Shown: positions 56,738 to 60,808, counted from the stretch's first letter. The stretch is DNA of 64,000 nucleotides from Clostridia bacterium (GCA_017456985.1 JAFTIH010000027.1:1575-65574); one strand, 5' to 3'. The notes: generated from the letters alone by a model not told the origin. Program-made: numbers and translations.

Positions 56738-57247
56738 ATGTCCGGAAATAGAAAACTCGGCAGAACCAGTTCGCAGAGAAAGGCGATGCTGAGAGGCATG
56801 GTTACCTATCTTTTCGAGAACGGAAAGATTGAAACCACATATACTCGTGCAAAAGAAGTTGCTGCGATTGCAGACAGCATGATCACCCTGGCAAAGGTTC
56901 AGGACAAATCGCAGGAGCTCGCCGCTTACCGCCGCGCACTTGCATATATCACCAAGTGGCAGGTAGCAAGAAAGCTCTTTGACGAGATCGCTCCCGGCTA
57001 TGCGAAGCTCGCAGGCGGCTACACCCAGATCCTGAAGCTCGGTCCCCGCCGTGGCGACGCCGCTGAAATGGCAATCGTCCGCCTGGTTCCCGCAGTAAAG
57101 GAAGAGGTCGTCGAGGAGAAGCCCGCTAAGAAGACTGCTAAGAAGGCAGCTCCCAAGAAGGCTAAGAAGGCTGAAGAAGCCGCTCCCGCCGTCGAGGAGA
57201 CTCCCGTTGCAGTAGAGGAAGCTCCCGAAGCACCTGTTGAAGAATAA
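56738..57247 (+). CDS. rplQ: 50S ribosomal protein L17 with a K/A/P/E-rich C-terminal extension
   Basis: Conserved bL17 core ([16 protein letters not shown]). About 50 aa of low-complexity tail [44 protein letters not shown]. Confidence 0.95.
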
Positions 57248-57258
57248 TCTTTAACTGC

Positions 57259-57289
57259 AAAAGCACCGTGTGAAAGCACGGTGCTTTTT
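57259..57289 (+). terminator. Intrinsic terminator after rplQ (copy 1)
   Basis: Stem AGCACCGTG / CACGGTGCT followed by TTTTT. Confidence 0.85.
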
Positions 57290-57316
57290 ATCATCCTGCG
57301 ACATGCGGTCGCCCTT

Positions 57317-57414
57317 CCTGAAACATAGTCGTCTGCTATCGCCTGCGCCTGCTCGGCTCTGCATACTCCTTGTTTCAGTTACATCCGTAAAAAAACAGTT
57401 ATCAACTGTTTTTT
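57317..57414. repeat. Tandem element copy 1: 63-nt core bounded by the inverted repeat CTGAAACA/TGTTTCAG, plus its own terminator-like hairpin
   Basis: Core at 57317-57379. Hairpin AACAGTT-ATC-AACTGTT flanked by A- and T-runs at 57389-57414. Confidence 0.8.
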
Positions 57415-57423
57415 CGCCGGTGA

Positions 57424-57522
57424 CCTGAAACATAGTCGTCTGCTATTGCCTGCGCCTGCTCGGCTCTGCATACTCCTTGTTTCAGTTAAGCACTTCGGAA
57501 AAACAATTATGAATTGTTTTTT
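57424..57522. repeat. Tandem element copy 2 (107 bp downstream of copy 1)
   Basis: The core at 57424-57486 differs from copy 1 at one position (C to T). It has a different terminator-like hairpin, AAAAACAATT-ATG-AATTGTTTTTT. Confidence 0.8.
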
Positions 57523-57536
57523 CTCGTTTACCCGCT

Positions 57537-57599
57537 GTCGAGGAGACTCCCGTTGCAGTAGAGGAAGCTCCCGCAGAGGCACCCGCAGACGCAGAATAA
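57537..57599 (+). pseudogene. Displaced duplicate of the rplQ 3' end (alternative L17 C-terminal tail with stop codon)
   Basis: 37 nt are identical to rplQ 57191-57227. The sequence then diverges but stays in frame ([20 protein letters not shown]-stop). It is followed by an exact copy of the rplQ terminator. Confidence 0.7.
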
Positions 57600-57606
57600 T
57601 TGCACC

Positions 57607-57637
57607 AAAAGCACCGTGTGAAAGCACGGTGCTTTTT
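57607..57637 (+). terminator. Intrinsic terminator (copy 2 of the rplQ terminator)
   Basis: Identical AAAAGCACCGTGTGAAAGCACGGTGCTTTTT. Confidence 0.8.
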
Positions 57638-57800
57638 CATATTTACTTTTCTTGATTTTTGTGCTATACTGTACGTGAGGATTTGTTTTATTACGGCAAG
57701 CATATGCGAAATCACCTGTCGCACGACAAAAACTGTCGCAGACGAAACGGAAACGATCGTGTATAATGAAATCACCAAAGAACAGAAAGGTGATTTCCCA

Positions 57801-58145
57801 ATGAGAAACTACGTAATTTGCAAATGTGCAGGACAAGCGAAAACGTCTTTTTACCTCGTATTAAACAACGACGAGCATTATTTGTTCACGCAAGGCTATC
57901 GCAAGGGCGTCAAGGAGTACTTTATGAAAGGCGTAACGATCCACGATGCCTTCGACACGAGCAAAGCAAGGTTTGACAGCGCTTTGATGCGCACGATGGA
58001 AAAAATACCGTCTTACATTCGGTACGTTGAAAAAGAATGTGGCATTGCCGTATTAGAGAAAACGAAGAAAAAACGAAAGCGCCTTGCCGCCAAATGCGAT
58101 AGCAGAAGCAAGAGCGCCGTTCATTTGCGCTTTAGCTGCACGTGA
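57801..58145 (+). CDS. Hypothetical small protein (114 aa)
   Basis: ATG with SD AGAAAGGTGA. An extended -10-like TGTATAAT lies at 57760-57767. The segment is AT-richer. I recognise no family. Confidence 0.45.
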   Translation: MRNYVICKCAGQAKTSFYLVLNNDEHYLFTQGYRKGVKEYFMKGVTIHDAFDTSKARFDSALMRTMEKIPSYIRYVEKECGIAVLEKTKKKRKRLAAKCDSRSKSAVHLRFSCT

Positions 58146-58155
58146 GGGAGGTCTT

Positions 58156-59319
58156 ATGATGACAACGGTAAAGAATATTCAAAAATTCATTGAAGACGTG
58201 ATGGATCGGTACTCTATATCGTACGACTTCTTCTTCACGACGTATAACGACGAAGACCGACCGGTCAGACGCAGAGTTTTTCCGCAAGGCAAAGTGGATG
58301 AATACAACTTGAACCGTGTTTGTCGCATCCTTGGTTTGGATAAGGACGTGATATTGTGCGCAGACAGAGAAAAGGCAAACCTCTGGTTTCAAAAATTTCC
58401 TTTTTTTCGCATAATGCTTGAATACAGAACGGCAAATTATTATGCCACCTACGGAACGTCCCCCGCAGAGGGAAGGCTTTTAAGCGCAATTTTCGGGCAA
58501 AGGTTTTGCAAAAAGTACGCAGATGAAGAAATAAAAGACAGGCTGTTGCAAACGCTCAAGCAATACGATAGTGTAATCCCGCATTTGTATCATCCCAACG
58601 CGACGATCGATAGATTTTTGCACAGTGAGCAGGATTTCGTTCCGTTTGAGCGGGTGGAAGGTTTGGTGCAGAGCTTCCTCTTGTTGGTCGAACGGCATAA
58701 GGAGCTATTCTTTAAGATCTGGCACTTGGATTTGCGTGCGGAAGAAATCAACGAGTATAATTTTCTTACGACGGTGCTTGAAGCGCAGGATATTGCCAAA
58801 GCGGGTGGGCTTTTGTACCATCATAAGGTGTTACAGATGCTTCCGATCTTTAAAAAAGAAGGATTTGAGAGGTACGAGTCCTTTGTAAAAATTGGAAAAC
58901 GCGATTTTGAGCCTTGGCGATGCCCTCGCTTCGCTGACGATTTTGCACTTGCCCAACGATATATAAACGTTTTTCCAAGAGCAAAGGAGAATATCCGCGA
59001 ATTTTGTATGCAGATCCGCAACATTCGTTGCAGCTATACGTGGTCTGACGATGAATACGTCGTTGACGAAGAGGATGCCATGGTGCCCGAGGAGCTTCGC
59101 TTGGGGCGCTACCGTCCCTTGAAGCAAATCTACGTTCCGAAGACGGAAGCCGAACTGGGTGACGATTTCATCTACGCGGAAAAGCTGAGTCGATTGGCGG
59201 CGCCGCCCACGCAAAACGGTCTTGTCGTCCCACAACCCGAGAGCCCCCAGGTTAAAAACTTTATGCGTCGTATGATGGATAGAGTTGCCGCCGGTATAAA
59301 AAAGGGGGAGGACGATTGA
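58156..59319 (+). CDS. Hypothetical protein (387 aa)
   Basis: ATG 58156 with SD GAGGGAGG. The long ORF is uninterrupted in AT-richer DNA, where spurious long ORFs are unlikely. I recognise no family. Confidence 0.6.
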   Translation: MMTTVKNIQKFIEDVMDRYSISYDFFFTTYNDEDRPVRRRVFPQGKVDEYNLNRVCRILGLDKDVILCADREKANLWFQKFPFFRIMLEYRTANYYATYGTSPAEGRLLSAIFGQRFCKKYADEEIKDRLLQTLKQYDSVIPHLYHPNATIDRFLHSEQDFVPFERVEGLVQSFLLLVERHKELFFKIWHLDLRAEEINEYNFLTTVLEAQDIAKAGGLLYHHKVLQMLPIFKKEGFERYESFVKIGKRDFEPWRCPRFADDFALAQRYINVFPRAKENIREFCMQIRNIRCSYTWSDDEYVVDEEDAMVPEELRLGRYRPLKQIYVPKTEAELGDDFIYAEKLSRLAAPPTQNGLVVPQPESPQVKNFMRRMMDRVAAGIKKGEDD

Positions 59320-59320
59320 A

Positions 59321-59536
59321 ATGATGGAAAAATCGTTCTCTCTTGTCGCAGGCGAAAGACTAAGACAGCTGATCAAGGAATATTATTCGTCCCAAGAGGA
59401 GTTTGCACTCGACTACCCGATGGATCTGCGAACAGTGAGTCGCTATGTCAATAACGGCATCACAAGGATCGATACGATTCAAGAGCTGGCTGAATTTTTT
59501 AAGGTTCCGTTCATTACGTTTTTTGAATCTACGTGA
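59321..59536 (+). CDS. XRE-family helix-turn-helix protein (71 aa)
   Basis: HTH_3-like pattern: GERLRQLIKEYYSSQEEFALDYPMDLRTVSRYVNNG. Confidence 0.65.
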   Translation: MMEKSFSLVAGERLRQLIKEYYSSQEEFALDYPMDLRTVSRYVNNGITRIDTIQELAEFFKVPFITFFEST

Positions 59537-59571
59537 GATCGTTATATACTTGGAAAAGAAAGGAGCGTACG

Positions 59572-59838
59572 GTGGAAGATTTTTGGAAAACATATGGTGG
59601 CAAAGAGCGATCCTCGGACGACGGACGACAGCAAAGCCGTGCTATAAATGCAGACGGGGGAGCAAAAAAACAACGCGAAAGCCCCGACGAAAAGAAAAAG
59701 GCGCTTTTCTTACAGCAAAAGAAAACGCTGGACACCTTTCTTGGGACGGGTGCCATCACGCGCGCGCAGTATGATAAAAGCCTTGGCGACCTCATTGAAA
59801 AAATGGGGATGCAGGGCGTGGAACAGGAATCATTTTGA
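59572..59838 (+). CDS. Small protein with a SHOCT-like C-terminal motif
   Basis: I prefer GTG 59572 (SD AAAGGAG, 6 nt spacer). Motif LDTFLGTGAITRAQYDKSLGDLIEKM. Lys/Glu-rich middle. Confidence 0.45.
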   Translation: MEDFWKTYGGKERSSDDGRQQSRAINADGGAKKQRESPDEKKKALFLQQKKTLDTFLGTGAITRAQYDKSLGDLIEKMGMQGVEQESF

Positions 59839-59867
59839 CTTATTTTTTTCAAACGGAGGATAATGAC

Positions 59868-60776
59868 ATGAGCAATGAGAAGAAAACGGAAATGCAAGAG
59901 AAAAAGATTGATTTGGGAACAGTTATCGCGACTGTTACAAAAATGCCGGGTGTTAAAGTTAATAGAGAGGCTTTTTTGAAGGAGCAATTTAAGGATTTAA
60001 GCAAAGAAGAAATTGCTTGTATCGTTGAAAAAGGCCCGGTGGATGCGGGGCAAAGCCGTGAAGCGTTAGCCAAAAAGGCGAGTAGAATTATAAAAGAGCG
60101 TACTGCGGTTTCATCTGCAGCCTCTTTGGTGGCTGGGCTTCCCGGAGGAATGGCTGTGCTTGCGACGCTTCCCGCAGACATCGTACAGTTCTATGCGGTA
60201 GCGTTGAGAATGGCGCAAGAATTAGTTTATTTGTATGGGGAAAAAGATTTATGGTGTGAGGCTACTGATAACTATGAACACGTAAACAATCAACTTATTT
60301 TGTATTGTGGCGTAATGTTAGGAGCTTCCGGTGCGGATGCAACAGTTAAGGTTTTGGCGGCGGCACTGGCAAAACAAGCATTGAACCAACTGCCTAAAAA
60401 GGCGTTAACGAAGACCTTTTATTTTCCTGCAATTAGAGCTACACTCAAATTCTTTGGTATCAAGCTCACAAAATCGATGTTCGGAAAGGGTGTTTCCAAG
60501 GTTGTTCCCATTTTGGGGGGAGTTGTATCCGGCGGCATAACACTTGCGTCAATGCTTCCTATGGGCAAGCGGCTTGCAAAGGTTTTGGATAAAGCGCACT
60601 TCGACTATTCGGAAGAAGATTTTGAGAAGGATATCAATATCATATTGGAACTTTCCGAGAAAGAGGAGGAAGATGTCTTAGCAAAAATTGAAAATGCTAA
60701 AGCTTTGTTGGATGAAGGCGTTATAACAGAGGGCGAATTCCTTAAGATAAAAGAAAAATTGCTCTCGGAAATCTAA
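59868..60776 (+). CDS. EcsC-like protein with a C-terminal SHOCT domain
   Basis: ATG 59868 with SD ACGGAGGA. The central LPGGMAVLATLPADIVQFYAVALRMAQELVYLYG resembles the EcsC family. The C-terminal AKALLDEGVITEGEFLKIKEKLLSEI is a typical SHOCT motif. Confidence 0.6.
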   Translation: MSNEKKTEMQEKKIDLGTVIATVTKMPGVKVNREAFLKEQFKDLSKEEIACIVEKGPVDAGQSREALAKKASRIIKERTAVSSAASLVAGLPGGMAVLATLPADIVQFYAVALRMAQELVYLYGEKDLWCEATDNYEHVNNQLILYCGVMLGASGADATVKVLAAALAKQALNQLPKKALTKTFYFPAIRATLKFFGIKLTKSMFGKGVSKVVPILGGVVSGGITLASMLPMGKRLAKVLDKAHFDYSEEDFEKDINIILELSEKEEEDVLAKIENAKALLDEGVITEGEFLKIKEKLLSEI

Positions 60777-60781
60777 ATACG

Positions 60782-60808
60782 AAAAAGGCAGGGAAACCTG
60801 CCTTTTTC
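60782..60808. terminator. Bidirectional intrinsic terminator
   Basis: AAAAAGGCAGG-GAAA-CCTGCCTTTTT between convergent genes. Confidence 0.8.

Follow-up and report, generated by a model that had tools for sequence, protein, structure and literature searches.

RESULTS

The end of rplQ and its terminator are present twice

The ribosomal protein gene rplQ is followed, in the DNA analyzed here, by an intrinsic terminator, two copies of a structured unit (the core), and a second copy of the gene end that has a terminator as well (Table 1). The window, meaning the whole stretch of 64,000 nt that was analyzed (JAFTIH010000027.1, 1575-65574; Clostridia bacterium GCA_017456985.1), comes from a 1.8-Mb MAG of 49 contigs that is 93.6% complete. 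A repeat search of the window aligned the rplQ tail at 57185-57230 with 57531-57576 (44 of 46 positions identical), including an exact 37-nt block (57191-57227 and 57537-57573), and the terminator at 57258-57289 with 57606-57637 (32 of 32 identical). These repeats had been reported in a preliminary description of this DNA and are confirmed, with the terminator block placed at 57258-57289. Calculated from 4^-32, exact repeats of 32 and 37 nt lying 350 nt apart would be far beyond chance in 64 kb.

Table 1 Features at the 3′ end of rplQ (positions in the window)
Feature	Position	Strand	Evidence
rplQ (ribosomal protein L17), 169 aa	56738..57247	+	ORF list; Pfam Ribosomal_L17 on identical L039 gene
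X1, proximal copy of the repeated rplQ end	57185..57230	+	repeat search, alignment
Tail A: last codons up to the stop (57245-57247) and the trailer; differs from distal copy	57231..57257	+	alignment
Proximal intrinsic terminator hairpin (read as element-borne copy)	57258..57289	+	repeat search, fold
Spacer and left arm, ends ...GTCGCCCTT, kept before the core in this subfamily	57290..57316	+	
Core unit 1: P1 ~57318-57380, P2 57391-57415, right end of ...GGTGA subtype	57317..57423	+	
Core unit 2: P1 ~57425-57487, P2 57499-57523, right end ...CTCGTTTA at 57530	57424..57530	+	
X2, distal copy and tail B (read as displaced native rplQ end)	57531..57599	+	live in P0005
Distal (native) rplQ terminator	57606..57637	+	repeat search, fold

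Pairwise alignment of the two copies gives a sharp onset of homology at CCCGC, which directly follows ...CTCGTTTA in the distal copy and lies within rplQ in the proximal one, and an offset at the terminator T-run. Divergence is confined to a stop-proximal block of about 30 nt that is enclosed by 37/37 and 32/32 identity. The preliminary description had also stated that the copies differ between the repeated blocks and that the downstream copy can be read in frame as an alternative L17 tail; the alignment bears out the one, and translation, in which the distal copy ends ...EEAPAEAPADAE and a stop and the live gene has a different tail, the other. Folding gives each terminator hairpin about -20.5 kcal/mol (z of about -5.2). 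In a search of the whole 49-contig MAG, neither repeat block was found at any other locus, and both are unique to rplQ.

The same order of parts occurs in two independent ENA metagenome assemblies, one with a single core (L039) and one with two (L040). The downstream genes of L039 are those of the window, and its identical rplQ gene has the Pfam Ribosomal_L17 match given in Table 1. Because it is reproduced in both, the arrangement is not an artifact of a single assembly, a concern that the preliminary description had raised and that is answered here at the assembly level. The contig of L040 stops within the distal copy (L040:3780-3854), where it has the copy-2 SNP (CCCGCT) but the letters of tail A; in that strain the two copies may have undergone gene conversion, or else the assembly took a wrong path at the repeat.

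The insert consists of a dispersed core with two co-varying hairpins

The insert of about 240 bp is a pair of units with a 107-nt period (TRF), each a copy of a dispersed two-hairpin core of about 110 nt, and the ORF list holds no plausible gene in 57248-57530. Iterated nhmmer found 16 core copies in the host MAG, many of them at contig ends, and a covariance model found 18. The first hairpin, P1, is long and imperfect, with unpaired CATAGTCG and CTCCTT that are invariant and an interior that is variable; the second, P2, consists of AAAACAGTTATCAACTGTTTT and leads into the right end ...CTCGCTTA. In an alignment of 123 sequences that was itself fitted to the model, P1 is 96.8% paired, with 6 of 7 pairs changed on both sides, and P2 is 94.1% paired, with 9 of 12 pairs co-varying, compared with 40 to 52% pairing in slid controls. 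In single folds, an outer stem that may close P2 at the boundary was seen in three co-varying versions, but on the same alignment it is only 50.7% paired. Fold z-scores of core copies range from -3.4 to -5.9. Counts of G-T versus A-C show no strand bias and both strands of the core fold equally well, and its structure therefore looks DNA-level rather than that of a strand-specific RNA. A search of the window and five related loci against Rfam 15 returned, at the element, only chance-level matches far below the gathering scores; the tRNA and Gut-1 matches in the related loci fall elsewhere.

The two units at rplQ are nearly identical in P1 (64 of 65 positions) and differ in P2 and in their right ends (...GGTGA versus ...GTTTA). 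The right end of unit 1 abuts CCTGAAAC of unit 2, which repeats the same junction of A with CC. The single core of L039 combines the P1 variant of unit 1 with the P2 of unit 2; this mixture implies either that a unit of P1 and the second P2 was inserted using P1 homology or that L039 lost the segment between the two P1 copies.

Three other readings of the core were considered and rejected. For a small reverse-strand ORF, inspection showed that AAGGAG is kept but the ATG is not, and that the spacing is 1 to 2 nt. A guide role for the P1 interior is contradicted by the occurrence of the same P1 type at different targets. In an attC-like reading, the GTTRRRY-like and RYYYAC-like boxes would stand in the order opposite to that of attC.

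Core copies follow a common junction rule at gene ends

In the host genome, the sequence immediately after the ...TTA of each core copy repeats one that lies about 100 to 120 nt upstream of the core. The duplicated sequences are the 3′ ends of three tRNA-Leu genes, the 5′ parts of tRNA genes in reverse orientation, and the rplQ tail. The same rule was seen in other species: the right end ...CTCGCTTA, followed by CC, adjoins a repeated gene end, which may be a tRNA 3′ end, a reverse-oriented tRNA 5′ part, or the end of rpsI or rplQ. The 3′ end of rpsI (S9) is the second protein target and is used in several species, and altogether at least 15 different targets are served by one conserved core.

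An exact partner, that is, a second nearby copy of the gene end, was found for 55 of the 137 core copies examined. Identity begins 10 to 12 nt after P2 in 37 of these 55 partnered copies. The flanking repeat has a median length of 17 nt (range, 11 to 78), usually starts with CC, and can extend into native terminators; on the gene side, the 55 partnered copies have no motif in common before the junction. Where the tRNA has the same orientation, the junction always lies just after the T-loop; reverse-oriented tRNAs have it in the D-loop, in the variable loop, or after the D arm. Units are stacked in tandem, with the repeat between them, at L061, L064, and L057. Six solo copies have no partner upstream within up to 20 kb or to the contig end. 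A promoter supplied by inserts of the 5′ type is not supported: on C7, both pieces are fragments, and it is the displaced one that keeps the perfect promoter.

At least one member carries cargo, which is of a defense type. At L100 (JAZSBJ010000065.1, 3790-6300), a tRNA-Pro(cgg) gene is followed by 2.3 kb of cargo, a core, and a 16-nt repeat of the tRNA-Pro 3′ end. The cargo encodes a 438-aa protein with TIR and RuvB_N-like P-loop parts and a 185-aa protein with a PD-(D/E)xK-looking motif, and no recombinase was found in this cargo-bearing member.

The core was found in 52 of the 61 genomes of the genus that were searched, at 1 to 18 copies each, and, patchily, in 13 of 150 other genomes of the order, across nine families. 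It occurs in at least 116 stretches of named records. All 80 stretches listed belong to MAGs of uncultured Clostridia, Eubacteriales, Oscillospiraceae, or "Ruminococcus"; most of these 80 come from ruminant gut samples, and at least one is labeled HGM.

Several other repeats lie close to core copies. Downstream of rpsI at L230 and L236 (G056 and G001), a second, unrelated miniature element of about 170 nt, bounded by an 18-nt repeat (CAGTTCNCNAAGAGATAA), occupies the rpsI 3′ end; in the stack at L230, it comes behind the two-hairpin element. A third small repeated unit (GGTAGTGAATGAAGGCCTTGGGACTGTCAGAGCC...GAGAATC) is present at L047 (G000:C6) and L045 (G000:C10), and its start also at L052; this GGTAGTGAATGAAGGCCTTGGGACTGTCAGAGCC unit adjoins a tRNA-Leu fragment running from T-loop to acceptor, within element arrays. 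Near tRNA-Glu, at L048 (G000:C35) and L049 (G000:C43), a common repeat of about 90 nt (GTACGGGTATCAGCCCTACGGGCTGGGAGTCGCTCCTTGCAGGTCGC...) flanks element copies. The terminator after many tRNAs is nested in an inverted copy of the tRNA 3′ acceptor (and T-stem) strand (C6, C23, and C44 of G000; L052, L064, and L070), which gives a long composite hairpin. An element copy at tRNA-Lys is closely followed by two copies of the Gut-1 RNA motif (RF01706; 59 and 38.7 bits; L075:1668-1852). In many MAGs of the genus (loci L207 to L236), rpsI lies about 300 to 700 nt from a contig end, which is consistent with repeats just downstream that break assemblies.

Evidence that the distal copy is the native gene end

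The direction of the change can be read at rpsI, for which the genus provides both a filled site (in G020) and an empty one (in G023). The distal tail of G020 ends AAGAGATAA, continues with TTACCCATTTGGGATTATTTCGATAT... and a terminator, and is orthologous to the native end of the empty site. The live proximal copy ends AAGCGCTAA, with other codons than AAGAGATAA and another terminator. This comparison identifies the rpsI insert as a gene-end copy with terminator and core, and the distal copy as native.

At rplQ, an L17 protein of the same 90% cluster from an independent Logan assembly (P0005, on a contig of 1,268 nt) is identical to the window protein as far as ...VEEAP and continues with the fossil tail. 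Tail B is thus a live C terminus in P0005, which marks the distal copy as a true native end of the gene; in principle, P0005 could have been produced by an assembly path that jumped across the 37-nt repeat. The C-terminal L17 tail, rich in Ala, Pro, and Glu, is hypervariable among the strains of this one 90% cluster, in which P0001 to P0007 have at least five different endings; A-type tails are present in P0001 and P0002 also. The compact diverged block between stretches of 37/37 and 32/32 identity indicates two alleles of different origin rather than a target-site duplication. The insert is absent from all 29 related rplQ loci examined, and the species-level relatives that carry these loci are too diverged to provide orthologous empty sites; two JGI metagenome scans for empty-site rplQ DNA gave no matches. 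Together, P0005, the pattern of divergence, and the rpsI sites support the earlier proposal that the original end was displaced by a segment bringing its own version of the rplQ tail and terminator and remains as a fossil.

The preliminary description had further noted a low-GC islet after the fossil. This islet (57640-60800; GC, 0.43 to 0.45) does begin just beyond the fossil but lies outside the repeats, with no further rplQ remnant at its far side, and is not part of the element. It has neither a recombinase nor a bounding repeat, and there is a promoter-like site at 57642-57670. The islet encodes an HTH_3 protein (59321-59533), a PDC-S30 defense candidate (59868-60773; PADLOC E value, 2e-93), and proteins of 114 and 387 aa that have no family matches.

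Search for an enzyme that could move the element

No recombinase was found in or near the rplQ element. The host MAG encodes one Xer-like tyrosine recombinase (PF00589 match), on another contig, and one ordinary solo IS200; it has no matches for a serine recombinase (PF00239), a reverse transcriptase, or TnpB. We rejected IS200 as the partner, since its ends are unrelated to those of the element and its distribution does not match. Y1 transposases occur in 19 of the 61 genus genomes searched; core-rich genomes lack them, and core-negative genomes have them. The solo IS200, at L088 (G000:C23:46738-50094), encodes a 161-aa Y1 transposase and has the usual 5′ hairpin and an RBS-occluding stem.

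Adjacency of integrases and cores across the 61 genus genomes was likewise rejected as a lead because it amounts to chance co-location; the integrase of G004 lies on the other side of the tRNA, and the case of G075 is unconfirmed. Twenty integrase-bearing contig ends have no core. The core has no pattern match in IMG/VR and no BLAST match in the phage and plasmid collections searched. Classical integrase islands of the genus use rpsI and the same tRNAs. One of them, at L238 (G013:C15:64000-75300), is an island of about 7.4 kb in the 3′ end of rpsI; its right junction has a 379-aa tyrosine integrase, its repeat is about 17 nt long (TTCTCCAAGAGATAATT), and it lacks the two-hairpin core. An integrase-bearing element with the core was thus found in none of the 61 genus genomes, the 20 integrase contig ends, the G013 rpsI island, and the viral, phage, and plasmid collections. 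Since classical islands of the genus use rpsI and the same tRNAs, a helper acting in trans would be plausible.

DISCUSSION

Proposed insertion of an element that carries a gene end

The duplicated rplQ end is probably the result of insertion of a mobile element that carried a replacement for that end. We read the element as miniature (0.2 to 0.35 kb), integrase-less, similar to a cis-mobilizable element (CIME), and mobilized in trans. The incoming DNA would have consisted of a terminal rplQ segment of ~60 nt, in an allele of its own and with its terminator, a short spacer, and the conserved two-hairpin core, and would have recombined with the chromosome inside the common rplQ stretch of 37 to 46 nt. 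On this reading, the crossover falls somewhere inside the exact 37-nt block (57191-57227), tail A is the incoming allele, and the last ~20 codons of rplQ are element-borne. The gene would now end in the tail A and terminator of the element, and native tail B with its terminator would have been moved about 346 bp downstream, directly 3′ of the core right end (...GTTTA followed by CCCGC). The core (P1, P2, and right end) would most likely serve as the recognition site of a recombinase supplied in trans, and the carried gene end would provide homology for the crossover and keep the target gene intact. If the two repeats recombined, the element would be lost and L17 would have tail B.

We infer that the recombination is conservative and site specific, that the enzyme acts in trans, and that the hairpins have a role in it. 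A tyrosine-type integrase acting in trans is a tentative candidate for the insertion, to which we give somewhat less than even weight. Ordinary tyrosine integrases have one target each, and classical attP arms need no single-stranded or cruciform substrate. One core at 15 or more targets, with co-varying hairpins, is unusual for the attP arm of a tyrosine integrase, and the hairpins point to a single-stranded or cruciform substrate. A bolder proposal, which we consider unlikely on present evidence, is that the target is set by the carried gene-end copy rather than by a dedicated integrase specificity, so that the family would be a new class of miniature integrative element. A single recombinase, perhaps host encoded or hairpin recognizing, would then join the core right end to any homologous site. 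If true, this would account for the use of 15 or more targets by one core, with insertion at 5′ as well as 3′ gene ends, and would make the system interesting as a programmable means of insertion.

Alternative explanations

One alternative concerns the mechanism and not the insertion itself. The element may move as single-stranded DNA through a hairpin-recognizing recombinase of the HUH type or another single-stranded DNA recombinase, the carried gene end giving only selection or annealing at the target. Precedents for such movement are the derivatives of IS200/IS605, the REP/RAYT system, and the action of Xer on a folded hairpin, as for the CTX phage. Two strongly co-varying hairpins with conserved bulge and loop bases would fit it, as would the even G-T and A-C counts, expected for DNA rather than a strand-specific RNA, a junction fixed 10 to 12 nt after the foot of P2, which is a geometry typical of hairpin-guided cleavage, and the Xer-like character of the only tyrosine recombinase of the host MAG. 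We nevertheless regard it as doubtful. Y1 enzymes are present in just 19 of 61 genomes, without following the core, the ends of the solo IS200 are unrelated to the element, and the MAG has no TnpB; moreover, IS200/IS605 elements lack flanking repeats and use a constant tetranucleotide target, whereas the gene side here has no common motif. A local origin without any mobile element, by tandem duplication or template switching at the hairpins downstream of rplQ and later divergence of a low-complexity tail, seems improbable. It is true that the arrays at L061 and L064 repeat the whole unit perfectly, head to tail, that hairpins can stall forks and the core itself occurs in tandem arrays (L073), and that the L17 tail is hypervariable among strains. 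The divergence at rplQ is, however, a compact block between 37/37 and 32/32 identity, unlike drift after duplication, and duplication of the whole segment should have left a second spacer and set of cores downstream of the distal copy, where there are none. The proximal copy at rpsI also differs in terminator and codons from the native end of the empty sites, and the same core is found at many unlinked loci in several families of the order.

Retention for function rather than as a scar would be expected if the element were a small RNA or a cis-regulatory module whose variable, gene-end-derived 3′ part serves as a guide or decoy. A scaffold with a variable tail derived from the target is indeed the layout of a guide RNA, and the structure is strongly conserved, with the low fold z-scores given above. 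The core, however, has no evident promoter upstream and is preceded by a strong terminator; both strands fold equally, with no wobble bias; the P1 interior does not track the target; the tail varies from 11 to 78 nt and reaches into native terminators; and there is no TnpB or IscB-like partner and no Rfam family. We therefore consider a functional RNA very improbable. Least probable of all, to the point of being negligible, is a mis-join in the MAG that created the repeat. The MAG is in 49 contigs, repeats of this family are often at contig ends, and L040 ends inside copy 2 with the letters of tail A; against this, ENA assemblies from two samples have the same order of parts, L039 has the same downstream genes, and dozens of MAGs that are unrelated and come from different projects follow the junction rule.

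Significance and comparison with known systems

The proposed insertion of an element with a replacement gene end turns a local repeat into a rule at the level of a family: in a widespread genus of uncultured Clostridia from gut and rumen, a structured module of about 110 nt resides repeatedly at the ends of tRNA and ribosomal protein genes, each copy bringing a spare gene end. Such insertion would explain pseudo-tRNA fragments, duplicated gene tails, and many of the contig breaks in these MAGs. The cargo-bearing member with a TIR protein (L100) suggests that the family may seed small defense islets at gene ends. Two questions follow, namely, which enzyme acts on an element with two DNA hairpins and how one core serves many targets. 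In the literature that we searched, which was not exhaustive, we did not find a uniform, structured, multicopy family of about 0.2 kb of this kind described.

The individual features have clear precedents. Integrative mobilizable elements (IMEs), ICEs, and islands that insert at the 3′ ends of tRNA and ribosomal protein genes and carry a replacement end are established, and the rpsI 3′ end, tRNA 3′ ends, and, more rarely, 5′ ends are known integration targets (PMC5704250, PMC4383910). Integrase-less CIMEs and tandem accretion are established as well (PMC5704250). Like IMEs and genomic islands with tyrosine integrases, such as IMESag-rpsI, IME_SagNEM316_rplL, the IMEs at rpmE and rpmG, and the Islander islands, the element described here splits a gene, restores its end, and leaves the displaced native fragment at the far junction; restoration was found at rplQ (from the repeats and P0005), at rpsI (from filled and empty sites), and at tRNA sites. 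It differs from these IMEs and islands in size (0.2 to 0.35 kb, compared with kilobases), in having no integrase or any other gene, and in that one hairpin core is common to elements at 15 or more targets, with no sequence relation found to an integrase-bearing element. The CIMEs related to ICESt1 and ICESt3 of Streptococcus thermophilus likewise have attL- and attR-like gene-end repeats, no integration or transfer genes, and tandem stacking (PMC5704250). Each of those, however, is a single decayed remnant, kilobases in size, of a known ICE or IME, whereas here a uniform core of about 110 nt is present in hundreds of copies in more than 50 species; the spread of a uniform, structured core as a family suggests selection for mobility rather than random decay. 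Arrays of partial tRNAs that arise from repeated integration at the same tRNA are also a feature of Tycheposon remnants in Prochlorococcus, but Tycheposons are 10 to 20 kb and carry an integrase, and their remnants are described without clear boundaries (bioRxiv 10.1101/2020.12.28.424599), whereas the element here is a conserved miniature module.

Among miniature elements, the PATEs of IS200/IS605 and the REPINs of REP/RAYT are similar in their imperfect hairpins, their conserved unpaired bases, and a boundary fixed a short distance from the hairpin foot; they differ in lacking flanking repeats and in using a constant short target, and the Y1 enzyme does not co-occur with the element. MITEs (miniature nonautonomous transposons) are, like the two-hairpin element, small, noncoding, multicopy, and structured, break MAG assemblies, and are presumably moved by an enzyme in trans. 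In contrast to MITEs, the element has no terminal inverted repeats and no target-site duplication of fixed length, its flank of 11 to 78 nt derives from the carried gene end, and its insertion is restricted to gene ends, which are then restored. The family is a candidate counterpart of MITEs in the world of integrases.
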